A DNA stretch of 13,279 nt, from contig CAWALK010000006.1 in the NCBI GenBank assembly GCA_963782915.1, positions 1-13,279 of the forward strand, read 5' to 3'. Under the pieces are notes generated by a model. It was not told where the DNA came from and did no database searches. It worked only from the letters and a program-made list of their open reading frames with translations. The DNA comes from an uncultured archaeon. Lineage in GTDB: Archaea > Thermoproteota > Bathyarchaeia > Bathyarchaeales > Bathycorpusculaceae. Made by a program: the position numbers and the translations under genes. Positions within the stretch are counted from its first letter, which is position 1. Each line of letters begins with the position of its first letter. Below, in pieces: positions 1-13,279 of the stretch.

Positions 1-353
1 CGCTTAACGCAGCCATGCGACGTCGAATGGCTGTGTGGATCAACTTCGATTTCCTCAGTGTGGGTGAAAAGATTAGCCCTGACGAGGTGGAGATGCTGCG
101 TAAAAGAACCAAAGTTAGCCAAGAAATCGCTTATGGCATCATTCAAGCCGGTGCAGAGTTGCGTCGGCAGTACAAAGCCGGCGATTTACCTTATGGCCCA
201 TCGCTTGGTGACTTGATCAACTGGGCAACATTGGTTTTCGATGGTATGACACCTATGGAAGCTGCGGAAGAAACAATCATTGGGTTAACCAGCGACAACG
301 TTGAAGTACAGGCTGATGTACGGAGAATCCTTGAACCGGTCTTCCTGAAATAG
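1..353 (+). CDS. CbbQ/NirQ/NorQ (MoxR-family) AAA+ ATPase, C-terminal part (5'-truncated by window)
   Basis: The frame is open from the window edge (LNAAMRRRMAVWINFDF, a MoxR-type 'LNxAxRRR..I.FDY' Arg-finger segment). A CbbQ C-terminal-like lid follows (ELRRQYKAGDLPYGPSLGDLINWA). It lies directly upstream of a VWA gene, the usual MoxR/VWA pairing. The ATG at 15 is probably internal. Confidence 0.8.
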   Translation, partial: LNAAMRRRMAVWINFDFLSVGEKISPDEVEMLRKRTKVSQEIAYGIIQAGAELRRQYKAGDLPYGPSLGDLINWATLVFDGMTPMEAAEETIIGLTSDNVEVQADVRRILEPVFLK

Positions 354-370
354 TCGGGGAGCATTCGCCA

Positions 371-2095
371 TTGGGTTTTATTGATTATGCTTGGGCGGTT
401 TCTCTACAAAAAGATAACACGAAAGTAAAGATTCTCCAAGATGAAGCCTTAGAGCAGCCAGTGTTACTTGGGGATGAAGTAGGGTTTACTATAAAGTTGC
501 CCGCTGTTCATTTACGGAAAGATGGCACCATAAGTTTTTTGGGGTTAAAATTCGCCGGAGACAACAACGGTAAATCCAGGGTTGGCAGAGTCTTTCGTGC
601 ATCTGTAATGCACCTAACCCTGCACACAATAGCGCCTTTTACAAAGAATCGGATTGTGCCTAACCCAAAAGACGGTATACTAGACGCATACGCCAAATCC
701 TTAGTCAATGACATATACATTAACTCTTACATTCAAGCATGGTACCCAGACCGCTTCTTTGACCTAGCATACGCCAACGCGCTTGCTTACCAAAAAATTA
801 AGTCCTGTGACAGAATTTTCACTTCCTCAACCAAGTTAATGTCTGCATTACTAACTCAGCTCTATGTGGGTTCTATGAAGAATTCGCCGGGTATCGAAGA
901 AGAGAAGGTTGTCAATAAACTCCATAGTGACTTGATGGCGCTTAAGGAAACTTTCATGATGTCGATTGCCGGCGACGAAGTAAAATTCAACGATGTATTT
1001 GATGAAAAAGTGAAAATAATCAAAGATTCGCTTGAACCGTTTGGCCCATTTTTAGAGGCTCCATCTTTTAAGCATACAGAAAACATTGGACGCAACAGCA
1101 TCTACACTGACATAGAGGGAGCTGCTATGTCTGTTGAGGATTTTGAGGGGTTATTTGTGCAGTCGCTTATGGCTATGGGCGGCGATGTTCCATCCGTAGA
1201 TCATATTGAGCAGTTGTGGCGTGTAGAACAAGAGGCAGAGGCTCTGCAAGCGTTTAATGCTGATCATTACCAGAAGCAAAGAGAGACAAGAATCCTCCAA
1301 AAAATTGCACCTTACATGGGTTTAACACGTTTGAAATCGGTCGCTATCCCCGAAGAAGACTATACCCAGTATCTTCGTGCGAGGACTTTGGTGCAGGGTA
1401 CGAGCCGTCGTGTTTTGGATATTTTGCGTTCAGCCTTTAATTATTTGGATGAGGACCCACGTCAGGAGATGGGGCAACTGGATTTGCCTGCGGTTATTCA
1501 GTCTTTAGCCGCCAACAAGCCCGCGACTGACGTGTTTAATTTGGATGAGTATTTGCAGCCAAGTTATGCTTGGTCACTTATCTTCGACGTAAGCCACAGC
1601 ATGCAGGTTAAGGGAGAGTTTGGGCGCGCCTTAGCTATCGCTGTGGCTGAAGCTGCCCGTGAATTGATGACTGATCCAACGTCCTGGACGTTTTTTGCTT
1701 TCAGCGACCGATTCTACATCTTAAAAGACAGCACTGAATCGTATTCTAAGCGTGTTCGGGCTCGGATTGGCGGGTTAAAGTTTGAAGGCTTAACCTATAT
1801 TCCTGATGCTATCACGATTGGCGGTAAGATGCTTGCGAAACGTTTTGAGGAACAGCGTATCTTGGTTGTGATTTCGGATGGGTGGCCGTATGGTTACGCC
1901 AACATGCCCATTGCGTTGAAGGAATGTGTGGATGATTTGGTCCGCAAAAACGTTATTGTCATCGGTATTGGTGTGGAAACTGATAGGATGAGCAACTTTT
2001 TCCATTTGCACTCGTCTATCTATACGCCTAAAGACCTTGTTAAGAAATTCGCGAGTGTTTATGCGCATGCTTCTGAGAAGGCGCTTGAATCATAG
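371..2095 (+). CDS. VWA-domain protein, NorD/CbbO-like partner of the MoxR ATPase
   Basis: 574 aa, TTG start with GGGGAG at 356-361. C-terminal VWA with intact MIDAS (DVSHS ... GLT ... VISDGWP), 'GQLDLPAVIQ' pre-VWA segment and 'VIGIGV' strand. Confidence 0.85.
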   Translation: MGFIDYAWAVSLQKDNTKVKILQDEALEQPVLLGDEVGFTIKLPAVHLRKDGTISFLGLKFAGDNNGKSRVGRVFRASVMHLTLHTIAPFTKNRIVPNPKDGILDAYAKSLVNDIYINSYIQAWYPDRFFDLAYANALAYQKIKSCDRIFTSSTKLMSALLTQLYVGSMKNSPGIEEEKVVNKLHSDLMALKETFMMSIAGDEVKFNDVFDEKVKIIKDSLEPFGPFLEAPSFKHTENIGRNSIYTDIEGAAMSVEDFEGLFVQSLMAMGGDVPSVDHIEQLWRVEQEAEALQAFNADHYQKQRETRILQKIAPYMGLTRLKSVAIPEEDYTQYLRARTLVQGTSRRVLDILRSAFNYLDEDPRQEMGQLDLPAVIQSLAANKPATDVFNLDEYLQPSYAWSLIFDVSHSMQVKGEFGRALAIAVAEAARELMTDPTSWTFFAFSDRFYILKDSTESYSKRVRARIGGLKFEGLTYIPDAITIGGKMLAKRFEEQRILVVISDGWPYGYANMPIALKECVDDLVRKNVIVIGIGVETDRMSNFFHLHSSIYTPKDLVKKFASVYAHASEKALES

Positions 2096-2362
2096 GATAG
2101 GGTTAGCTGCTCTGCCGAGGACCCCCCTCCCCTATATATAGAAAGACAAACGGCTAAACCCTTGTTGAGCTAGTGTACATTCATTGAGTATGCGTTGGGT
2201 TAATGCAATGTTGTTGTAATTAGCCCACGCTAACTGGGCGTTTGCCGTTGTATTGCCTGCAATTCTATGCGCAAGCAACCTAAAGTTATTGCTCTCTTCA
2301 CTTTATCCCCGTTCTCTCTTGACGACTGGACCGTTATTAAATTAACTGAAAAATCTGTTTTC

Positions 2363-2376
2363 CGAAACCTTAAATT
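2363..2376 (+). promoter_or_regulatory. Putative archaeal BRE + TATA promoter for the mini-protein/OFOR operon
   Basis: CGAAAC-CTTAAATT is a purine-rich BRE followed by a TTAAAT box, about 40 nt upstream of the ATG at 2416. Confidence 0.5.
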
Positions 2377-2415
2377 CCCCATAACGACAGAAGTATTTGT
2401 GCAGAGGCGAAGAGG

Positions 2416-2553
2416 ATGACTGAAAAAAATCAGCCTCGATGCATCAACTGCGGAAACTTTATCGACGACTGTAATTGTGTATGCCCATACTGCGGAGAGT
2501 CCGCAAAGTGCACATGCGTAATAGGCCACGATAAAGCAACTGGCGGTGGATAG
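2416..2553 (+). CDS. Unannotated 45-aa cysteine-rich small protein (8 Cys, C-terminal ATGGG)
   Basis: Manual translation gives MTEKNQPRCINCGNFIDDCNCVCPYCGESAKCTCVIGHDKATGGG*. It has two CxxCG knuckles plus CxC motifs, a purine-rich GAGG leader and an upstream TATA box, and ends 32 nt before the OFOR alpha start. It is too short to appear in the ORF track. Confidence 0.8.
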   Translation: MTEKNQPRCINCGNFIDDCNCVCPYCGESAKCTCVIGHDKATGGG

Positions 2554-2585
2554 CCAAAACTTCAATTTTAAAGTGAGAAATCAAA

Positions 2586-5472
<2,887 letters not shown>

Positions 5473-5565
5473 GTTAGAAGAAATTGGTGAGGAGCTTCTC
5501 CTTTCCCCTCAACCTCTTATGCGCTTTGTGAGCTTATATATCCCTATTTCTGAGTTCGATATATG

Positions 5566-5937
5566 TCAGGGTTGGTCTGGCTCTAAATCAACGTAGCAGT
5601 CTTGGGTGAATCTGGGTGTGCAGACGCAGTAGAAGACTAAGTCGGTGTCGCCTGTGTTTTTTACTTTCTGTGAGGTCTCTGGTGGGATAACTACTACGTC
5701 GCCCACTGTTACTTCGGTTGGTTCAGTGTCGCCGATGTAGACGGTGCCTTTGCCGCTTGTTATGATATAAATCTCCTGAACCCCATGGATTAGGTGGTGT
5801 GCTTTGGTGGTTACGGCGGGTTTTATGGTTGCTCGCGCGATTGAGACTGCTGGGTCGCTGTGGTTTTCAGCTATATAGCAGTGTTCGGGGGTTAGGTATT
5901 GGTGGGGGGTTTGGGCTTTGATGATTTTGGGCTGCAT
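5566..5937 (-). CDS. Cupin-domain protein (cupin_2-like)
   Basis: 123 aa with cupin motif 1 (AHHLIHGVQEIYIITSGKG) and motif 2 (VGDVVVIPPETSQKVKNTG). Confidence 0.85.
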   Translation of the reverse strand: MQPKIIKAQTPHQYLTPEHCYIAENHSDPAVSIARATIKPAVTTKAHHLIHGVQEIYIITSGKGTVYIGDTEPTEVTVGDVVVIPPETSQKVKNTGDTDLVFYCVCTPRFTQDCYVDLEPDQP

Positions 5938-6174
5938 TATCCATCACTTTTCTCCAATTTTTCAGAGGCAGATGCCCTGTTTGGGGCTTGTTTATTGATG
6001 AATACCCGTTTTTTGTTATATTGCTTGCGTAAGCCTTAACCAAAGTGGATATTTGGGCAGATAGGGGTTTTTTTGTGATTTGGGCGTTTTTTTGGGTTTT
6101 TTGTTGTCGTGTTTTTTGTGTATTTTTTATGGAGTTAGCATTCAGGTTTTGAGTGGGTTTACGTCTAATATGTA

Positions 6175-6190
6175 AAAAGTCCTTATATAG
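6175..6190 (+). promoter_or_regulatory. Putative BRE + TATA promoter of nrdRDG
   Basis: AAAAGTCC-TTATATAG (TATA at 6183-6190), about 70 nt upstream of the nrdR ATG. Confidence 0.55.
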
Positions 6191-6206
6191 GCGCTAACTG
6201 TAGTGT
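6191..6206 (+). promoter_or_regulatory. Candidate NrdR box
   Basis: GCGCTAACTGTAGTGT matches 11/16 positions of the bacterial NrdR-box consensus acaCwAtATaTwGtgt with the correct 4-nt arm spacing. It sits immediately 3' of the TATA box. Confidence 0.4.
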
Positions 6207-6262
6207 ATTCGATAAGCTTGTCGGCACTACGGATAAAAGAACGGCATGAGTATGTATAACCT

Positions 6263-6712
6263 ATGAGATGCCCCTACTGCAACTCAGAAAATTCAAAAAC
6301 ACTCGAAACACGCGAGTCCCCAGAAAACACCACACGCAGACGCAAAGAATGCATAACCTGCAACAAAAGGTACACAACCTACGAGTACCTCGAAACCGTC
6401 GAACTCATGGTACGCAAAAAAGACGGCCAACTCCAACGCTTCGACGTCAACAAAATCATCCGCGGCTTACAAAAAGCCTGCGAAAAACGCCCCGTAACCA
6501 TGGCTCAAATCAACGAGTTAGCAGACCAAGTACGTCAAGACCTAATGCTCAAAGGCACCGAAGAAGTCGCATCCGTAGACATCGGCGATTTAATCATGAC
6601 TCACCTCAAAAAAGTCGACCGAGTCGCCTACATTCGATTCGCTTCGGTTTACAAAAAGTTTGAAGAACCTGAAGATTTCAGGCGAGTCCTATCGGAAGTG
6701 AAGAAACAATGA
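6263..6712 (+). CDS. nrdR: Transcriptional repressor NrdR
   Basis: Zn ribbon (CPYC...RRRKECITC, RYTTYE), ATP-cone (VRKKDG...FD..KI..GL.KACEKRPV) and C-terminal VAYIRFASVY. Confidence 0.96.
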   Translation: MRCPYCNSENSKTLETRESPENTTRRRKECITCNKRYTTYEYLETVELMVRKKDGQLQRFDVNKIIRGLQKACEKRPVTMAQINELADQVRQDLMLKGTEEVASVDIGDLIMTHLKKVDRVAYIRFASVYKKFEEPEDFRRVLSEVKKQ

Positions 6713-8835
6713 AGTTTGTCCTAAAACGTGATAGTAAATTAGAACCATTCGATCAAGAACGCATAACAATAGCTATTTACAAAGCTGCAAAAGCAGTGGG
6801 TGGCAGAGATAAAGAACAGGCTAAACAAGTTAGCGACAAAGTTGTTGCTGACTTAAACAAACTCTATGGCGACGACGGCGTACCCACAGTCGAAGAAATA
6901 CAGGACTTAGTGGAAAAACGCTTAATCGAAGACGGCCACGCCTCCACAGCTAAAGCCTACATCCTGTACCGCAAGCAGCACACTGACATGCGCGAACTCG
7001 CCGCATTACTAAGCTCATCTGACATGGTTGATCAGTACCTTGAAGTCGAGGACTGGCGAGTAAAAGAAAACAGCAACATGAGCTACAGCCTACAGGGCTT
7101 AAACAATTACCTCTCATCAACAGTCATCGCCAAATACTGGATAGCCCGCATCTACCCAGAAAACATCGCAGCCGCACACTTCTCAGGCGACCTACACATC
7201 CACGACCTAGGCGTCTTGGGTCCATACTGTGTGGGCTGGGATGTCAGCGACCTACTCCTCTCAGGCTTCGGCGGAGTCCATGGCAAAATAGAGAGCAAAC
7301 CCGCCAAACACTTCCGCACAGCCCTTGGCCAAGTAGTCAACTTCTTCTACACTCTCCAAGGCGAAGCAGCAGGAGCACAGGCGTTTAGCAACTTTGACAC
7401 TTACTTAGCACCTTTCATACGCTACGACCACTTAACACAAAAAGACGTGGAACAAGCACTGCAAGAATTCTTCTTCAACATGAACGTGCCCACCCGCGTC
7501 GGCTTCCAAACACCCTTCACCAACTTAACATTAGACTTGACTGTGCCTGACTTCATGAAAAACGAAGCCATCATCCACAACGGCAAAGTCATGCAAGACA
7601 CCTACGGCGACATGACCAAAGAAATGGAAATGTTCAACATCGCATTCGCCGAAGGCATGAAACAGGGCGACGCAAAAGGCCGAGTCTTCACCTTCCCAAT
7701 CCCAACCTATAACATCACCAAAGACTTCGACTGGGACTCACCCGTTTCGCAAGCCATCTTTGAAGTCACAGCCAAATACGGTGTACCAAACTTTAGCAAC
7801 TTCGTAAACAGCGACCTCAAACCCGAAGACGTACGCAGCATGTGCTGCCGCCTGCGCATTGACAACCGCGAACTGCGCAAACGAGGAGGAGGATTCTTCG
7901 GCGCAAACCCACTCACAGGAAGCATCGGAGTCGTCACCCTAAACATCCCCAGAATCGGATACCTATCCAAAGACGAGGATGAATTCTTCGAGAAACTAGG
8001 CGGCTTAATGGATATTGCCAAAAACAGCTTAGAAATCAAACGCAAAGTCCTCGAAGGCTTCACAGACAACGGCTTATACCCATACAGCAAACGCTACCTA
8101 CGCCACGTAAAAGAAGGGTTCGATAAGTACTGGAAGAACCATTTCTCAACAATCGGCATAATCGGCATCAACGAAGCAGTCCTCAACTTGCTGGGCCAAA
8201 ACATCGCCTCCAAAGATGGACAAGCCTTCGCAGTTAAAACACTCAGCTATATGCGTAAACGGATATCGGATTACCAAGAAGAAACAGGCAACATATACAA
8301 CTTGGAAGCTACACCCGCAGAAGGCACCTCTTACCGATTAGCCCGCTTAGACAGAAAACGCTACCGCGACATCATATTCGCCAACCAAAAACACATCGTA
8401 GAAGAACACGCTGAACCATTCTACACCAACTCATCCCAGTTGCCAGTAGATTTCTCAGGTGACCTCTTCGAAGCACTCGAACACCAAGAATCACTCCAAA
8501 CACTCTACACAGGCGGCACAAACTTCCACATATTCCTGGGCGAACGCTTACCATCATGGAAATCCGCTGCTGAACTCGTCAAAAAAGTCAGCTGGAACTC
8601 AAAACTACCCTACTTCACATTGACCCCAACCTTTAGCATCTGCCCAACACACGGCTACATGAACGGCCAACACAAAACCTGCCCAACCTGCGGCATACGC
8701 AGCGAAGTCTACAGCCGCGTTGTGGGTTACCTGCGTCCAGTTGACCAATGGAACGACGGCAAACAAGCAGAATTCGACATACGCAAAACCTTCGACCGCT
8801 CAACAGTAACGCAATCCGCACCCCTAACGGTTTAA
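6709..8835 (+). CDS. nrdD: Class III anaerobic ribonucleoside-triphosphate reductase with N-terminal ATP-cone
   Basis: ATP-cone (VLKRD..LEPFD..RI...VEEIQDLVE), HIHDL, PYC, SMCCRL finger loop, EATPAEG, YTNS, YTGG, C-terminal CPTH/CPTC Zn site and the glycyl-radical motif YSRVVGYLRP. ATGA overlap with nrdR. Confidence 0.97.
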   Translation: MKFVLKRDSKLEPFDQERITIAIYKAAKAVGGRDKEQAKQVSDKVVADLNKLYGDDGVPTVEEIQDLVEKRLIEDGHASTAKAYILYRKQHTDMRELAALLSSSDMVDQYLEVEDWRVKENSNMSYSLQGLNNYLSSTVIAKYWIARIYPENIAAAHFSGDLHIHDLGVLGPYCVGWDVSDLLLSGFGGVHGKIESKPAKHFRTALGQVVNFFYTLQGEAAGAQAFSNFDTYLAPFIRYDHLTQKDVEQALQEFFFNMNVPTRVGFQTPFTNLTLDLTVPDFMKNEAIIHNGKVMQDTYGDMTKEMEMFNIAFAEGMKQGDAKGRVFTFPIPTYNITKDFDWDSPVSQAIFEVTAKYGVPNFSNFVNSDLKPEDVRSMCCRLRIDNRELRKRGGGFFGANPLTGSIGVVTLNIPRIGYLSKDEDEFFEKLGGLMDIAKNSLEIKRKVLEGFTDNGLYPYSKRYLRHVKEGFDKYWKNHFSTIGIIGINEAVLNLLGQNIASKDGQAFAVKTLSYMRKRISDYQEETGNIYNLEATPAEGTSYRLARLDRKRYRDIIFANQKHIVEEHAEPFYTNSSQLPVDFSGDLFEALEHQESLQTLYTGGTNFHIFLGERLPSWKSAAELVKKVSWNSKLPYFTLTPTFSICPTHGYMNGQHKTCPTCGIRSEVYSRVVGYLRPVDQWNDGKQAEFDIRKTFDRSTVTQSAPLTV

Positions 8836-8847
8836 GGTGAAACTTGA

Positions 8848-9525
8848 TTGAAGTTTAGCGGATTACAAAAAATCAGTCTACAGGATTACCCAGACCATAT
8901 AGCCTCGATACTGTTCACGCCAGGCTGCAACCTACGCTGCCCCTACTGCCACAACTACAAAATCGCCGTTGACCCTCAACCGCCGTTTCTGCAGGAAGGC
9001 GCTGCTCTGCAAATACTTGAGAGCCGCAAGAAATACGTGGATTCAGTAGTCATTACTGGTGGGGAACCCTGTATGCATAAGGAACTGCCAAAGTTTTTGG
9101 CTAAACTCAAAGAACGGGGATTCTTCGTTAAACTGGATACAAACGGCTGCTTCCCAGACACACTCCAAGAATGCCTTCCCTACGTTGACTATGTAGCCAT
9201 GGACATTAAAACCAGCCCAGAAAAATACAAGCTTCTAGGCGCACCTGACACCACCGCACTAAAGCGCTCTATCGAAATCCTAAAAACGGGCAAAGTACCC
9301 TACGAATTCCGAACCACTGTTGTCCCAGAAATCGTCAATGCAGAAGACATCCCAGCCATCGGCGAACTAGTTAGGGGCGCCAAAGTCTATGCGCTTCAAC
9401 AGTTCGTTGCAGAGGACACATTGGATAAGCGATTCAAGTCGCTCAAGCCCTATGCGCCTGAAGTGATTCAGGGATTCGCTGAAACTCTCAAAGGGTACGT
9501 TGAGAATGTCATACTTAGGGTATAA
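8848..9525 (+). CDS. nrdG: Anaerobic RNR activating enzyme (radical SAM)
   Basis: GCNLRCPYCHN (CxxxCxxC), ITGGEP, KLDTNG, AMDIK and YEFRTT. TTG start with AAGGTGA upstream, directly after nrdD. Confidence 0.95.
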   Translation: MKFSGLQKISLQDYPDHIASILFTPGCNLRCPYCHNYKIAVDPQPPFLQEGAALQILESRKKYVDSVVITGGEPCMHKELPKFLAKLKERGFFVKLDTNGCFPDTLQECLPYVDYVAMDIKTSPEKYKLLGAPDTTALKRSIEILKTGKVPYEFRTTVVPEIVNAEDIPAIGELVRGAKVYALQQFVAEDTLDKRFKSLKPYAPEVIQGFAETLKGYVENVILRV

Positions 9526-9534
9526 TTCCACATA

Positions 9535-9544
9535 TTTTTCTTTT
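9535..9544 (+). terminator. Possible archaeal T-tract terminator after nrdG
   Basis: TTTTTCTTTT begins 10 nt after the nrdG stop, between convergent genes. Confidence 0.3.
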
Positions 9545-9627
9545 AAAAACCCAGCCCAGTCAATGGGAAAACATATTTTTAGTTAATTAAAGCCAGCCTT
9601 CTGACGAAGCTTCAGAATAGGCGCTTG

Positions 9628-10809
9628 CTAGCTGGATACTTTCTTGAAAGCCAAAACCAATGGCACCGTAGCCAAACCAATCAATGCGGAAATCAAAAAC
9701 GCTAACCCAAAAAACCCCACGGAAGCCCCAAAAGAAAACGCACTTGCAGCTAACACTGGCGCAATACTCTGCGCTGCCCCCGCAATCGCCCAAGCAACCC
9801 CCAACGTGCCACCCTGCGCTGCCTCAGACGCATTAATCGAAATCAGTGTGTTGTAAGTTACGAATTGGATTCCGAAACCAAACGAAGACAAAGCAGCAAC
9901 CGCCAACAGAACCGCAAAGCTTGATACCACAGACAAAATCGAAAGCCCAGCTACAAAAAAGATGATGCCTAAAATAACCAGCGAGGTTCTGTCTAATTTT
10001 TTACTCAACAGAGGCAGTAGAACCGCTTGGGTGAAAACGCTGACAGCGCCTATAAAAAAGAAAACCAAACCCGTTTCCAATGAGCCGAATCCGAAGACTG
10101 TTTGCAGCCAAGGTGACAGCGCAGATTGCAAAAAAACGAACGCGACAAAAAACAGGAAATAGGTTGCCAATAGCAGAACCATCTTGCGCTTTCTAATCGT
10201 CGCCAAAAGTGCCCTAAAAGAGAGCACTGTTCTCTTTGTGTTGAAGGCGGCTGGTTCAGGTAGCAAAAAATATGCTGACACCAAGTTAGTGAACGCCAAC
10301 GCTGACGCTAGGAAAGATGGCACCCCATACCCAAAATAGGTGCTTAGCGTTCCGCCGATTGCAGGTCCAAAAATAAACGCCAACCCCGCCGCTGCACCTA
10401 AAAGCCCCAGGTACTTTAGCCGCTGCTCTTTAGTGGTAACGTCTGCAACATAAGCCTGTGCAACTGGAACCGTGGCAGCGGTGGTTCCCGAGAGCATCCT
10501 GCCCAAAAAAAGCACCCACAGCATCTGCGCAGTGCCAAAGAGGAAGTAAGCTAAGCTGGCGACTGCAAGGGCGGCAAGCAAAATTTTTCTTCTGCCATAT
10601 CGGTCGCTGAGCCGAGCTACAATCGGCGTAAAAATAAACGACATCAAACTGTATGCAGCCAACAGAATCCCGTACAGCAACGCGTCGCCGCCTAGCGATT
10701 GTACATAGAAATAGAGGTAGGGTACGACTATGGCGAAGCCTAGGTTGTCTAGGAAAACGACGGAGAATAATACGCTAAAAGTGGCTTTGCCTGGTTTGTT
10801 GTATGCCAA
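9628..10809 (-). CDS. MFS transporter, DHA1/TetA-like efflux family
   Basis: 393 aa, about 12 hydrophobic segments, motif A (RLSDRYGRRKIL), 'LFLGRMLSG', 'AYVADVT' and antiporter motif C (GLAFIFGPAIGG). Confidence 0.92.
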   Translation of the reverse strand: MAYNKPGKATFSVLFSVVFLDNLGFAIVVPYLYFYVQSLGGDALLYGILLAAYSLMSFIFTPIVARLSDRYGRRKILLAALAVASLAYFLFGTAQMLWVLFLGRMLSGTTAATVPVAQAYVADVTTKEQRLKYLGLLGAAAGLAFIFGPAIGGTLSTYFGYGVPSFLASALAFTNLVSAYFLLPEPAAFNTKRTVLSFRALLATIRKRKMVLLLATYFLFFVAFVFLQSALSPWLQTVFGFGSLETGLVFFFIGAVSVFTQAVLLPLLSKKLDRTSLVILGIIFFVAGLSILSVVSSFAVLLAVAALSSFGFGIQFVTYNTLISINASEAAQGGTLGVAWAIAGAAQSIAPVLAASAFSFGASVGFFGLAFLISALIGLATVPLVLAFKKVSS

Positions 10810-10813
10810 AAAC

Positions 10814-10835
10814 TTGCACTAAGGGTTTAGTGTAA
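10814..10835. promoter_or_regulatory. Inverted repeat, candidate operator for the MFS gene
   Basis: TTGCACTAA-GGGT-TTAGTGTAA has 9-bp arms with one mismatch and lies about 5 nt upstream of the MFS start codon. Confidence 0.4.
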
Positions 10836-11244
10836 CTGGGGAAAATAAGGGTTTTGTGCTGTGTAGATTCAGTGATTGGTTGCTTAGGTTTTTGCGGGTT
10901 GCTTTTTTTCTATATTGGTTGTTGCTGTGGACTCCTCTTATTTCAACAACTACCAGCAGGGCTTTGCTTTGGCGTCGGGTTTGCTGTTGGGTTGTGGGAT
11001 GGGTTGCAGGCTGGTTGCGGAGTATGTACAAGCTGCAATAACCAAGCTAACCTAAAAGAAACATTGAACGCCCATAACTTGTCCAACTTAAGACCTGTAG
11101 CTTAAAAAAATAGAGCACTCAAGCGGGATACTTATTCGAGATAACGCAAACACCACTGAGTTAGAATGGTGCGGGATAGAATTAGTACAACATGCTTTTA
11201 TTTTTTAAAACCAATCTATAATTAGGCTTGTTTTAGGTGTTTTA

Positions 11245-13188
11245 GTGGCTAAAAGGCAAAGACTCACACAAAACGTCGGCTTGATTATAGTTGTTGCTTT
11301 CATAGTCATAACTCTTTTTCTTGTCATTTATGGCAGCAGCCTGCAGTTCGCCTTTAACCCGCCATACCTCAGGCTGATTCTAAACGCTATCTTCATTTCC
11401 TCAACCAACATTTTCGTAGCCATTGTTTCTGTCAGCAGTTTTCTACGTCATGGACAAATTAGTTTTGCCCTGCTAAGCGGCGCTCTTGTAACCAGCGGCT
11501 TAGCCGCGTTTATATCGGGTGGAGTTTCAGGCATTCCAACGGACGCCACCTTCACCGTTTTTAATGTTGGCTTCTTGCTTTCCTCTATTATGCAGGCTTT
11601 TGGGGCAGTTTACCTTTCGGCAGCATCTCCCGCATCTAAAGTGTATTCAAACAGAAGAATCATAATCGCGCTGATTCTGTTGTTGCCGATTATTGTTCTC
11701 TCAGTGTTAACGGCATTATCGGTTTGGGGTTTAACCCCTGCATTTATTGATCCAACGGGCGCTACCACTGACTTGCGGCAGTTTACGATAGCTTTGACTT
11801 TTCTCTTTTTTGTTTTTGCCAGTTCCATTTTTGCCTACCAGTATTTTCAGACTAAAGCACGTGCACTCTACTGGTACTCTTTAGCATTAGCTCTCTTTGC
11901 ACTAGACGCTATCGTTGCTTACAATTCAGCCCAATTAGGCGACGCATTGCAGTGGATTGGACGAATCGCCGACTACATGGGAGGTGTATTTTTCATTATC
12001 GCTTTTCTCTCGCTCAGACAACAAACCTTCGTCGGCGCTGATTACTCAGAAAGATGGTTTGAAACATTCAGTAACAACCGCGTTCAGCTTGCCTCACTCT
12101 TTGCCAGCATGTTAAGCGGGTTTGCGTATCTTAGAGTTATTCCCCGCAAAGGAGGCGGCACAGAGGATGCAGTGGTCTTGGAGGTTAACGACGCCTTTGA
12201 AAAAAACACAGGGCTCAAAAGAGAAACCGTGGTTGGGCACCGCTTATCTGTGGTGATTCCAGGGATTGAAGCTGACCCCGCCGCTTGGATAGATTTCTTT
12301 GGAACGATAGCTTTCCAGCGCAAACCAGCTAAAACCGAGAACTACCTGAAGGGGCTGAATAGGTGGCTAAGAGTCTCTGCGTACAGCCCTGAAACAGGCT
12401 ATGTCGCTGTATTGATTGATGACATAACGCCGCAGAGAGAACTGCAGAAGCAGCTTGAGGATTACACAAGAAACCTCGAAAAAATCGTTGAGGAACGCAC
12501 CGCACAACTGAGAGCGTCGGAACGTTTGGCGGGTATAGGTCAAACCGCCGGCATGGTTGGCCATGATATACGTAACCCCTTACAGGCAATCACGGGTGAC
12601 CTTTACTTAATTGAGCAGGAAGTTCAAGAAAACCCAAACTGCATCAGCAAAGAAATCGCTGAAAGCATCGCCGCCATAAATGAAAACATCGCCTACATTA
12701 ACAAAATTGTAAGCGACCTCCAAGACTACACCAGAAATCTAAAACCTACAAAATCAATGGTGAACCTCAACGAAGTCATAGACAGCGCTTTAACAGGTCG
12801 AACAATCCCTCAAAGCATATCTGTTGAAACGCCAAAAACTGATTTAAAAATTAATACTGACCCCACTTTTCTGAGACGCATCATAACTAACTTGGTAACA
12901 AACGCGATTCAAGCGATGCCTAATGGAGGCAAACTAATAATTGACGCATACACGGAAGGGAATGCCGTCTATATCTTTATTCAAGATACCGGTGTCGGAA
13001 TATCGGAAAAGGCTAAGCCGAACTTGTTTAAGCCCCTGTTTACGACTAAAGCGAAGGGGCAAGGTTTGGGGTTAGCGGTAGTTAAGCGGTTAATTGAGAT
13101 GTTAAACGGTGAAATAACTTTTGAGAGCCAAGAGGGAGTGGGAACAAAATTTATCATTAAGCTGCCGCTTGATTTGCAAAACCCATAG
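11245..13188 (+). CDS. Membrane-bound PAS-domain sensor histidine kinase
   Basis: About 7-8 N-terminal TM segments (MASE-like, inferred), PAS (LEVNDAFEKNTGLKRETVVG), coiled coil, H-box GHDIRNPLQAI, N-box NLVTNAIQAM, G1 DTGVGI, F-box FKPLFTTK and G2 GQGLGL. Confidence 0.93.
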   Translation: MAKRQRLTQNVGLIIVVAFIVITLFLVIYGSSLQFAFNPPYLRLILNAIFISSTNIFVAIVSVSSFLRHGQISFALLSGALVTSGLAAFISGGVSGIPTDATFTVFNVGFLLSSIMQAFGAVYLSAASPASKVYSNRRIIIALILLLPIIVLSVLTALSVWGLTPAFIDPTGATTDLRQFTIALTFLFFVFASSIFAYQYFQTKARALYWYSLALALFALDAIVAYNSAQLGDALQWIGRIADYMGGVFFIIAFLSLRQQTFVGADYSERWFETFSNNRVQLASLFASMLSGFAYLRVIPRKGGGTEDAVVLEVNDAFEKNTGLKRETVVGHRLSVVIPGIEADPAAWIDFFGTIAFQRKPAKTENYLKGLNRWLRVSAYSPETGYVAVLIDDITPQRELQKQLEDYTRNLEKIVEERTAQLRASERLAGIGQTAGMVGHDIRNPLQAITGDLYLIEQEVQENPNCISKEIAESIAAINENIAYINKIVSDLQDYTRNLKPTKSMVNLNEVIDSALTGRTIPQSISVETPKTDLKINTDPTFLRRIITNLVTNAIQAMPNGGKLIIDAYTEGNAVYIFIQDTGVGISEKAKPNLFKPLFTTKAKGQGLGLAVVKRLIEMLNGEITFESQEGVGTKFIIKLPLDLQNP

Positions 13189-13209
13189 AAAATCAGTTGG
13201 CTGTAATTG

Positions 13210-13279
13210 TGGCGAGGATGTGGGAATTGAACCCACGCGGCGCCACTCGACCATAAACTTAGCACGTCTTATGTAGCTG
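13210..13279 (-). tRNA. 3' portion of a tRNA or tRNA-like element, isotype unresolved (5' end outside window)
   Basis: Minus strand reads CAGCTACATAAGACGTGCTAAGTTTATGGTCGAGTGGCGCCGC-GTGGG-TTCAATT-CCCAC-ATCCTCGCCA. It has a perfect 5-bp T-stem with a TTC loop and ends in CCA. The other arms are non-canonical. Confidence 0.5.

Follow-up and report, generated by a model that had tools for sequence, protein, structure and literature searches.

The 13,279-nucleotide stretch of DNA analysed here (the window; contig CAWALK010000006.1, positions 1 to 13,279, forward strand) comes from an uncultured archaeon of the Bathycorpusculaceae, a family of the Bathyarchaeia. Directly upstream of korA and korB, the genes for a two-subunit 2-oxoacid:ferredoxin oxidoreductase (OFOR), the window encodes a Cys-rich protein of 45 residues, referred to below as the mini-protein (2416–2553, plus strand). 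Judging from its sequence and genomic setting, the mini-protein is probably an unannotated metal-binding helper of this enzyme. In the interpretation that we prefer, to which we assign a probability of about 0.5, eight Cys residues would form a double-metal knot carrying a free Thr-Gly-Gly (TGG) tail, and the protein would work with KorAB, probably on its iron–sulfur (Fe-S) cluster.

A Small Cys-Rich Gene under Purifying Selection

The mini-protein gene consists of 45 codons and a TAG, with the ATG at 2416 and the stop codon at 2551–2553, and its translation reads MTEKNQPRCINCGNFIDDCNCVCPYCGESAKCTCVIGHDKATGGG. The Cys residues at positions 9, 12, 19, 21, 23, 26, 32, and 34 follow the pattern C-x2-C-x6-C-x-C-x-C-x2-C-x5-C-x-C and delimit a core of residues 9–34 (nt 2440–2517, plus strand), and Cys makes up 18–20% of the residues. 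The only His is His-38, and the conserved tail D-K-A-T-G-G-G occupies residues 39–45 (nt 2530–2550, plus strand), so that the protein ends in T-G-G-G. A preliminary description of this DNA had reported an open reading frame (ORF) at 2416–2553 with 45 residues; on re-reading, its boundaries, length, Cys spacing, and translation were identical, and the gap of 32 nt that it gave agrees with the korA start at 2586.

Strong matches to the mini-protein (E ≤ 1.1e-10) were present in 17 of the 41 related genomes searched; the weaker matches in these genomes, which were numerous, are generic Cys knuckles within longer frames. A scan of genome contigs with one genome per species confirmed 471 loci, of which the best 80 were detailed. 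These 80 are mostly labelled Bathyarchaeia or Bathyarchaeota, the remaining labels being uncultured archaeon, Crenarchaeota, Thermoproteota, Methanocella, and bacterial, and we take the Methanocella and bacterial labels for mis-binned contigs. The pairwise ratio of nonsynonymous to synonymous substitutions (dN/dS), a check that had been proposed earlier, was determined for the mini-domain in three length classes, and its medians of 0.080 (74 sequences, 2061 pairs), 0.108 (23 sequences), and 0.034 (25 sequences) lie in the purifying range. The mini gene is real, protein-coding, and under strong purifying selection.

Other readings of the same DNA were rejected. An antisense ORF of 111 codons (2230–2565) was ruled out as the gene because the substitutions sit on third positions of the plus-strand frame. 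An apparent in-frame fusion of the mini gene to korA at locus L102 (a 708-aa ORF) is merely another reading frame, and protein P0066 (131 aa), also considered as a mini-korA fusion, reads as a frameshifted run-through into korA.

The Mini Gene as First Cistron of the korAB Operon

A spacer of 32 nt (2554–2585, plus strand), containing a GTGAG Shine-Dalgarno-like motif for korA at 2573–2577, separates the mini gene from korA. The korA gene (2586–4517, plus strand) encodes a fused gamma-alpha subunit of 643 aa with Pfam matches to POR_N (5e-52), POR (7e-28), and PFOR_II (7e-13). Its end is overlapped by the start of korB (4507–5472, plus strand), which encodes the thiamine pyrophosphate (TPP)-binding and [4Fe-4S] beta subunit of 321 aa, with TPP_enzyme_C and PFO_beta_C domains and the motif G-V-G-N. 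The closest solved relative of KorB is 5b46_B, the beta subunit of a two-subunit 2-oxoacid–ferredoxin oxidoreductase (E = 5e-113). A Pfam search revealed no Fer4 or ferredoxin domain in KorA or KorB, in agreement with the earlier classification of the enzyme as a two-subunit OFOR lacking such a domain. KorAB is a two-subunit 2-oxoacid:ferredoxin oxidoreductase with a fused gamma-alpha subunit, a beta subunit, and no delta subunit.

The order of these genes is strongly conserved. Among the best 80 loci, korA starts 27–52 nt downstream of the mini gene on the same strand in 78; one of the two exceptions lies on a contig that ends 74 nt past the gene, and the other belongs to Ca. Bathyarchaeum tardum. 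The korA gene is also downstream in 16 of the 17 strong-match loci of related genomes and in 44 of 70 metagenome loci, the latter found with a profile of five close sequences. For a sample of 401 genomes of the phylum, 30 loci were returned, and in every one a korA homologue lies directly 3' of the mini gene; the mini gene also directly precedes one in nine further loci of other families. The synteny with korAB, which had been named as a point to verify, is therefore evident, and the fixed position before korA supports the earlier proposal that the mini ORF is the first cistron of the operon.

Upstream of the mini gene, an element resembling a TFB-recognition element and TATA box (BRE/TATA), tccgaaaccttaaattcc, spans 2361–2378 (plus strand), approximately 40–55 nt before the start codon, and probably acts as the promoter; the BRE/TATA first placed at 2363–2376 falls inside this conserved element. 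Of 91 Bathyarchaeia loci, 61 have the consensus CCGAAA(N1-3)TTAA at a distance of 77–81 nt upstream of the first Cys codon, and the element is visible in the aligned upstream regions of 16 loci. A purine-rich leader, gcagaggcgaagagg (2401–2415, plus strand), abuts the ATG and includes a Shine-Dalgarno-like GAGG that would serve in ribosome binding. In 67 of the 91 Bathyarchaeia loci, a motif similar to GCAGAGGCG appears no more than 60 nt before the first Cys codon, and the conserved leader directly 5' of the start codon is gcagaggcgaag (67/91 loci).

Contigs from four metatranscriptome libraries of three studies provide supporting evidence only, as RNA libraries can hold DNA and a bridging contig is no proof of a single transcript. 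These contigs cover the ORF region (2408–2558) with three differences and bridge the mini gene and korA in two runs of one study (run X1, 2463–2662; run X4, 2463–2613). Eight of the ten listed differences within the ORF fall on third codon positions, and the other two, S29T and A30V, are changes also seen in relatives. No contig from the four runs lies over 2250–2385, a stretch whose lack of coverage is no evidence, and the left-most contig begins at 2408, which would be compatible with transcription starting downstream of the TATA-like element. An Rfam search over 2200–3300 returned no RNA family, which means that no known riboswitch or leader lies there.

Conservation of the Cys Core and the TGG Tail

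An alignment of 114 sequences, kept at <93% identity, was used to evaluate conservation within the family. Cys-9, Cys-12, Cys-19, Cys-21, Cys-23, Cys-26, Cys-34, Gly-43, and Gly-44 are invariant, and Cys-32 is present in 112 sequences. Outside the Cys residues and the Gly pair, the most conserved positions are Pro-24 (105), Tyr/Phe-25 (113), Gly-27 (105), Glu-28 (99), Ala-41 (100), and Thr-42 (101). The Cys spacing and the Gly-Gly end, the two features on which the preliminary description had staked its proposal, are thus both retained in 114 diverse sequences, and both refuting outcomes that it had named failed to materialise. Its lone His did not prove to be a family trait, since position 38 is mostly occupied by Tyr (32), Phe (28), Ile (13), or Leu (9). 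At position 35, where the window has Val, most relatives carry a ninth Cys (Cys 72, Ala 34, Val 7 of 114). The family is acidic, with a median net charge of −3 (range −8 to +3), which fits a protein partner better than a nucleic acid.

The residues that follow the invariant Gly pair vary to a limited extent. Among 122 locus-encoded copies, 74 have a third Gly (GGG) and 48 end in GG, and GGD or GGE ends occur in a GC-rich group and in some database representatives. Database representatives with the full motif number 79: 52 end at GG, a single residue follows GG in 18 and at least three in five, and four have no nearby GG. Of these four, one has a longer linker and then a terminal GG, and the rest appear truncated or frameshifted. 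The mini-domain is always located at the C-terminus, also in its two independent kinds of fusion, and we infer from this arrangement that the tail probably needs a free end.

Occurrence in Bathyarchaeia and Nitrososphaeria

The mini gene was found in 80 of the 401 phylum genomes, including all 56 genomes of one family with mostly closed genomes of 1.1–2 Mb, in which it lies directly upstream of korA. From protein names such as 'Nitrososphaerales archaeon', we read this family as the ammonia-oxidising Nitrosopumilaceae. The promoter of its members is a different one; its distance of approximately 30 nt from the ATG points to a nearly leaderless transcript, and the divergent neighbour is a gene for a D-2-hydroxyacid dehydrogenase. 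Since the loci of the phylum sample and of other families share it, the mini-korA-korB order is common to Bathyarchaeia and Nitrososphaeria, and the mini-protein family extends well past the genus of the window. Among 1.84 billion representative proteins, a profile search found 133 matches at E ≤ 1e-3 and 13 at E ≤ 1e-10, and most of the full-length matches are short proteins ending in A-T-G-G.

In the window's own family, the mini gene is present in 11 of the 12 other genomes that have a close KorB (E < 1e-150) and in none of the 13 that do not. This distribution shows that the mini gene was lost together with korAB in that family.

Associations with Fe-S Cluster Proteins

In three of four genomes of one Nitrososphaerales genus, the protein encoded directly before korA combines a NifU-like domain (PF01106, 6e-7) with the mini-domain, and NCBI names this fusion 'NifU family protein'. 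In another family, two of 35 genomes have a gene for IscU (NifU_N, 4.6e-53) together with one for a Cys protein of 57 residues before korA (L232, 3172–3731, minus strand; L233, 792–1345, plus strand). The 57-residue protein, which has a sub-threshold similarity to YHS/TRASH domains, differs from the mini-protein and stands in its place, and the KorB encoded at these loci is 69–70% identical to that of the window. The mini-protein can be compared with the Nfu/NifU and IscU scaffolds through a fusion in one genus and an equivalent operon position in two genomes; this link is one of fusion and neighbourhood only, and the mini-protein has no sequence similarity to either scaffold. Three points favour an OFOR-linked accessory role with an Fe-S connection: the mini gene is lost along with korAB, a NifU fusion occupies its operon position in one genus, and IscU and a Cys protein are encoded there in two other genomes.

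A separate observation concerns the cluster site of KorB. Residue 51 (4657–4659), within the motif S-G-[IV]-G-C/N, is Asn in the window and in 52 further loci and Cys in 47 loci, and the corresponding residue in 5b46_B is Cys-46. We take the Cys of S-G-[IV]-G-C (Cys-46 of 5b46_B) to be the third ligand of the [4Fe-4S] cluster. The Asn/Cys alternation in KorB showed no pattern with respect to the ninth Cys of the mini-protein (Asn with Cys-35 in 46 loci, Cys with Cys-35 in 40 loci), and KorB Asn showed none with respect to loss of the mini gene, genome G001 being a case of Asn with a decayed mini copy.

Fold and Comparison with Known Proteins

The only Pfam match of the mini-protein is to Zn_ribbon_3 (PF13248) over residues 8–28, at 14.5 bits against a cut-off of 27 (E = 0.026); the same model matches 12 of 57 family members at E ≤ 0.01, with a best value of 8.5e-5. 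A comparison with PDB sequences gave nothing significant, the best hits being bL32 (E = 0.06) and RpoP (E = 1). No Pfam or NCBIfam family model covers the mini-protein, and the ESM Atlas holds only clusters named 'hypothetical protein'. A Foldseek search of the PDB with the first AlphaFold2 model returned 0 matches at E ≤ 0.001; the weak rows, all with E > 1, comprise rubredoxins, whose matches span 21 columns, and RING/PHD/MYND-type fingers, and can serve as leads only. Zinc-ribbon-type knuckles are the only sequence resemblance found, and by these searches the mini-protein appears to represent an undescribed family. In the literature, at the level of listings and abstracts, no description was found of a small Cys-rich gene before korAB or of a third OFOR subunit in these archaea, and proteome tables of ammonia oxidisers may already list the protein; a passage of PMC10030591 concerns AmoZ and is irrelevant to the mini-protein.

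With the C4 zinc ribbons (Zn_ribbon_3, bL32, RpoP), the mini-protein shares a C-x2-C and a C-P-x-C-G knuckle approximately 10 residues apart, and both knuckles, C9-x2-C12 and C23-x2-C26, are invariant in the 114 sequences. It differs from them in scoring below threshold, in the four further Cys residues (C-x-C … C-x-C) interleaved with the ribbon, in its invariant C-terminal T-G-G, and in its fixed place before korAB. Rubredoxins and desulforedoxins likewise combine C-x2-C-G and C-P-x-C-G knuckles within about 45–55 residues, and a similar Fe(Cys)4 site is possible in the mini-protein. In rubredoxin (PF00301), however, the knuckles are ~29 rather than 10 residues apart, and the mini-protein has no aromatic core signature, no Pfam match, a second Cys4 set, and a TGG tail; the fold matches to these proteins are not significant.

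A small Cys-containing module close to the Fe-S clusters of the enzyme, serving electron exit or oxygen protection, is found in the four-subunit OFORs, as the delta (ferredoxin) subunit, and in the pyruvate:ferredoxin oxidoreductase (PFOR) of Desulfovibrio africanus, as domain VII. The mini-protein, in contrast, lacks the motif C-x2-C-x2-C-x3-C-P and any Fer4 match, and it is a separate first cistron whose product may bind KorAB. The earlier statement that the protein is neither a classical ferredoxin nor a rubredoxin holds, given that the cluster motif of the former is absent and that the spacing differs from the latter, with no Pfam match to it. The further statement that it is not a beta-grasp protein agrees with its 45 residues and with the lack of ThiS or MoaD matches in Pfam and NCBIfam; the models, which are of low confidence, show no beta-grasp either, and so the protein is not ubiquitin-like. 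What it has in common with ThiS, MoaD, SAMP, and Urm1 is a conserved Gly-Gly at or near the C-terminus, together with short extensions after GG in a few members; what sets it apart is a length of 45 residues with eight metal-type Cys and ends that vary among GG, GGG, and GGD/E.

LysW/ArgW is an acidic zinc-ribbon carrier protein of approximately 50 residues whose working part is a conserved flexible C-terminal tail. The tail of LysW has an acidic motif with a terminal Glu, and its genes occur with ATP-grasp ligases of the LysX/ArgX type in lysine and arginine clusters. Small size, acidity, a zinc ribbon, and a conserved flexible tail would be common to both proteins, whereas the mini-protein has an A-T-G-G(-G) tail, korAB as neighbours, and no LysW match in Pfam at E ≤ 1. 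By analogy, LysW may be considered the nearest precedent for a zinc-ribbon protein in which the C-terminal tail is the working part.

A Proposed Role for the Mini-Protein

We propose that the eight Cys residues, lying within 26 residues, would fold around two metal ions in an interleaved, cross-brace-like manner. Site one, of the zinc-ribbon or rubredoxin type, would be formed by C9-x2-C12-G and C23-P-Y-C26-G, and site two by C19-x-C21, in the hairpin between the knuckles, paired with C32-x-C34. The last seven residues (39–45; D/G-x-A-T-G-G, plus or minus one residue) would remain a free, flexible tail. Made from the same message as KorAB, the mini-protein could act as a small accessory subunit or assembly factor, with the metal knot as its body and the TGG tail as a plug, both docking on KorAB. 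Its task would concern the single [4Fe-4S] cluster of KorB and might be insertion or delivery, repair, shielding, or the tuning of electron exit. We infer the metal, the binding to KorAB, and the effect on the enzyme. The mini-protein would then work in the manner of a small enzyme-attached zinc-ribbon microprotein, outside any described family, and an Fe-S-related accessory of KorAB appears to be its best-supported role.

Several findings weigh against this interpretation. A single fusion event in one genus and one neighbourhood in two genomes are the whole basis of the Fe-S link. The AlphaFold2 monomer reached a mean predicted local distance difference test (pLDDT) score of 64.3 with 21 sequences and 61.3 with 114, the tail scoring <50, and the models are consequently too weak for metal-site assignment. 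KorB-type genes occur in 255 of the 401 phylum genomes as opposed to 80 for the mini gene; being far more widespread, they indicate that the mini-protein is a lineage addition and not a general part of two-subunit OFORs. Decayed copies exist next to an intact korA: in G001 the mini copy is shortened, with four Cys gone; G017 keeps only mini remnants behind a conserved promoter; and the mini gene of G020 is frameshifted, possibly by a sequencing error. Conversely, Ca. Bathyarchaeum tardum has an intact mini gene and promoter with no adjoining korAB, its KorA, encoded elsewhere, being 42% identical.

Copies away from korA form two further groups that count in the same direction. At 11 loci of genomes of the 56-genome family (L133–L143), a stand-alone paralogue (…C-x2-C-H-N-x-L-P-H-C-H-C-x-C-P-Y-C-G…ALFDAATGG) adjoins Lrp/AsnC-type genes; a tandem third copy is sometimes present, in which the eight Cys are kept and the GG tail is gone, and in three protein clusters (P0152–P0154) an Lrp/AsnC ligand-binding domain (PF01037) is located N-terminal to the stand-alone paralogue. 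The second group comprises 24 GC-rich metagenome loci (64–72% GC; L160–L175, L177–L179, L182, L183, L210, L212, L229) with the tail ATGG or ATGGD and no korA, 18 of which have at least 1.8 kb of downstream sequence. Of the four loci of this group that were scanned, two have EamA-type transporter genes upstream and two have DUF488 genes nearby. From the orphan copy, the stand-alone paralogues, and the decayed copies it follows that the mini-protein is not tied to KorAB exclusively and that the tie can be dispensed with; readings of the mini-protein as a redox carrier, a C-terminal carrier or modifier, or a regulator therefore stay alive.

Alternative Explanations

The mini-protein could be a free redox carrier in which one or both Cys4 sites bind Fe or a small Fe-S cluster and which replaces or precedes ferredoxin as the acceptor of the KorB electrons. 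The C-x2-C-G and C-P-x-C-G knuckles are common to rubredoxins and zinc ribbons, the weak fold matches (all E > 1, leads only) are to rubredoxins and cross-brace fingers, KorAB has no Fer4 domain, and stand-alone paralogues would suit a general carrier; moreover, the rubredoxin of Chlorobium tepidum reportedly accepts electrons from PFOR. Such a role is nevertheless rather unlikely in our estimation. An invariant free TGG tail has no function in a simple electron carrier, the knuckle spacing (10 versus ~29) and the missing Pfam match argue against a rubredoxin, and fusions to NifU and to Lrp/AsnC ligand-binding domains are atypical of electron carriers. A high-potential acceptor would also waste the low-potential electrons that the anaerobic Bathyarchaeia presumably need. 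The protein could also be a carrier or tag that acts through its C-terminal carboxylate, the Gly-Gly being adenylated and thiocarboxylated, or else amide-linked to a metabolite or protein, with a chemistry similar to that of ThiS/MoaD/SAMP or LysW but on a Cys8 scaffold without a beta-grasp. Consistent with this idea are Thr-42 (101/114), the invariant Gly-43 and Gly-44, the strictly C-terminal location of the domain even in fusions, extensions after GG in five of 79 representatives as in ubiquitin-like precursors, the small, acidic, zinc-ribbon-like character shared with LysW, and the 2-oxoacid and amino-acid contexts of the genes (korAB, 2-hydroxyacid dehydrogenase, Lrp/AsnC ligand-binding domains). 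Yet the ends differ (48 GG and 74 GGG of 122, and also GGD/GGE), so that an E1-type enzyme would meet different ends on its substrates; the beta-grasp, the fold that E1 enzymes recognise, is lacking, and the tandem paralogue has eight Cys with no GG tail. E1-like genes are, to our knowledge, near-universal in archaea, so that finding one in a genome would not discriminate; the neighbourhoods inspected, which were not searched systematically, showed no gene of the E1-like, JAMM, ATP-grasp, or sulfurtransferase type. We consider chemistry at the carboxylate unlikely, and it is slightly more doubtful still that the Cys8 mini-protein is a new protein-borne carrier, built on a double-metal knot in place of a beta-grasp, whose activated TGG takes a sulfur, acyl, or amino-acid-derived group to or from the OFOR.

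Regulation of the operon, either by a zinc ribbon that binds DNA or RNA or by an upstream ORF whose translation, for example through its cysteine demand, controls korAB, would fit the place of the mini gene as first cistron directly before korA. Zinc ribbons often bind nucleic acids, as in NrdR, which is encoded in the same window, and the paralogue adjoins, and is fused to, Lrp/AsnC-type regulatory domains. The net charge is negative, however (median −3, with a minimum of −8), a spacer of 27–52 nt and a separate Shine-Dalgarno-like motif precede korA, and a protein conserved over two classes with stand-alone paralogues exceeds what a leader peptide requires, which makes this explanation improbable. 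Least likely of all, and very improbable in our view, is a general zinc or metal buffer or chaperone of the metallothionein type that lies next to korAB by chance. The high Cys content (18–20%) and the GC-rich member at L163, one gene away from a cation-efflux/zinc-transporter gene, would suit such a buffer; opposed to it are the fixed non-Cys residues (Pro-24, Tyr/Phe-25, Gly-27, Glu-28, Ala-41, Thr-42, and the invariant Gly-43 and Gly-44), the place before korA kept in two classes, and the loss of the mini gene together with korAB. The preliminary description had offered four functions side by side: a metal or Fe-S carrier, an OFOR accessory subunit, a metallothionein-like buffer, and a modifier or sulfur carrier with a Gly-Gly tail. 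The evidence favours the accessory subunit, with a link to Fe-S clusters, and makes a mere buffer unlikely because the non-Cys residues and the tail are fixed.

A Possible Excised RNA within korA and the Surrounding Genes

Apart from the mini-protein, the RNA-library contigs disclosed an unusual feature of korA. In three runs from two studies, the segment 2852–3194 (343 nt, KorA residues ~90–203) has a summed depth of 260–2300, as compared with ~15–45 in its flanks, which makes it 10–100 times deeper. A head-to-tail joint, 3194 to 2852, is present in contigs: a 176-nt record from run X12 has 61 and 113 nt on either side of it with 0–4 differences, and in run X1 the joint has a depth of 763. 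In run X4, two contigs join 2851 directly to 3195.

The minimum-energy fold of 2812–3235 pairs both flanks of this segment. In the predicted structure, an outer helix (2832–2842 with 3199–3209) is followed by a central helix of 5 bp (2845–2849 with 3189–3193) and an inner helix (2853–2863 with 3178–3188). The 5' cut would fall after the second base of a 3-nt bulge (A2850-G2851-U2852), and an opposite A-rich bulge (3194–3198) would hold the 3' cut, giving a predicted fold with a relaxed bulge-helix-bulge shape. A bulge-helix-bulge is the substrate of the archaeal splicing endonuclease. In the window's clade (62 loci, 53 distinct), the spacing is 343 nt and 92.2% of the pair cells are standard, compared with 59.9% in the 91 other loci. 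The pair 2839–3202, which joins the second positions of two codons, shows compensatory changes (GC 34, AT 10, GU 7, AC 2). Excision of the 343 nt would shift the frame, and the shortened ORF would then be only 93 codons long, its TGA stop overlapping the ATG of the in-frame Met-208.

The korA segment looks like an excised circular RNA from an essential ORF; a tandem DNA duplication in relatives may instead explain the head-to-tail joint. Archaeal cbf5 mRNAs are known to contain introns, and work in Haloferax has considered substrates of the splicing endonuclease other than tRNA and rRNA (PMC2738675, PMC7714728). A conserved excisable piece of an essential coding sequence would be unusual.

Upstream of the operon (15–2095) lie a CbbQ/NorQ-type C-terminal fragment and a VWA-domain gene; in other genomes, the VWA gene does not keep this place next to the mini gene. 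Downstream (6263–9525) are an nrdR-nrdD-radical-SAM activase cluster and, on the minus strand, a cupin gene. The same assembly contains the whole region a second time (G000 contig C1:24000–37000, L021, aligned with window positions 1–9330) at 94–96% nucleotide identity. This second copy includes VWA, mini, korA, korB, and beyond; korA, korB, and VWA match in pieces only, and the mini gene is preceded by approximately 1.4 kb of additional DNA. It may represent variation between strains, an artefact of assembly, or a duplicate in decay.

Implications

In the central carbon metabolism of ammonia-oxidising archaea and of Bathyarchaeia, the 2-oxoacid steps are carried out by two-subunit OFORs. The ammonia oxidisers rank among the most abundant microbes of ocean and soil, and many anoxic sediments are dominated by Bathyarchaeia. 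Their OFOR has hitherto been treated as KorA plus KorB, and its operon has a third, unannotated gene in two major archaeal classes. As this gene is conserved with a Cys8 core and a free TGG, the enzyme as it has been studied and modelled may be incomplete. More generally, genes of 45 codons that are overlooked by annotation can be core genes.

The mini-protein also bears on how an Fe-S enzyme stays working in aerobes. If the tail were chemically active, the mini-protein would add a new scaffold to the few protein-borne carriers, and if the carrier reading were true, it would represent a third solution beside the ThiS/MoaD/SAMP and LysW types, present in every sampled ammonia-oxidising archaeon.

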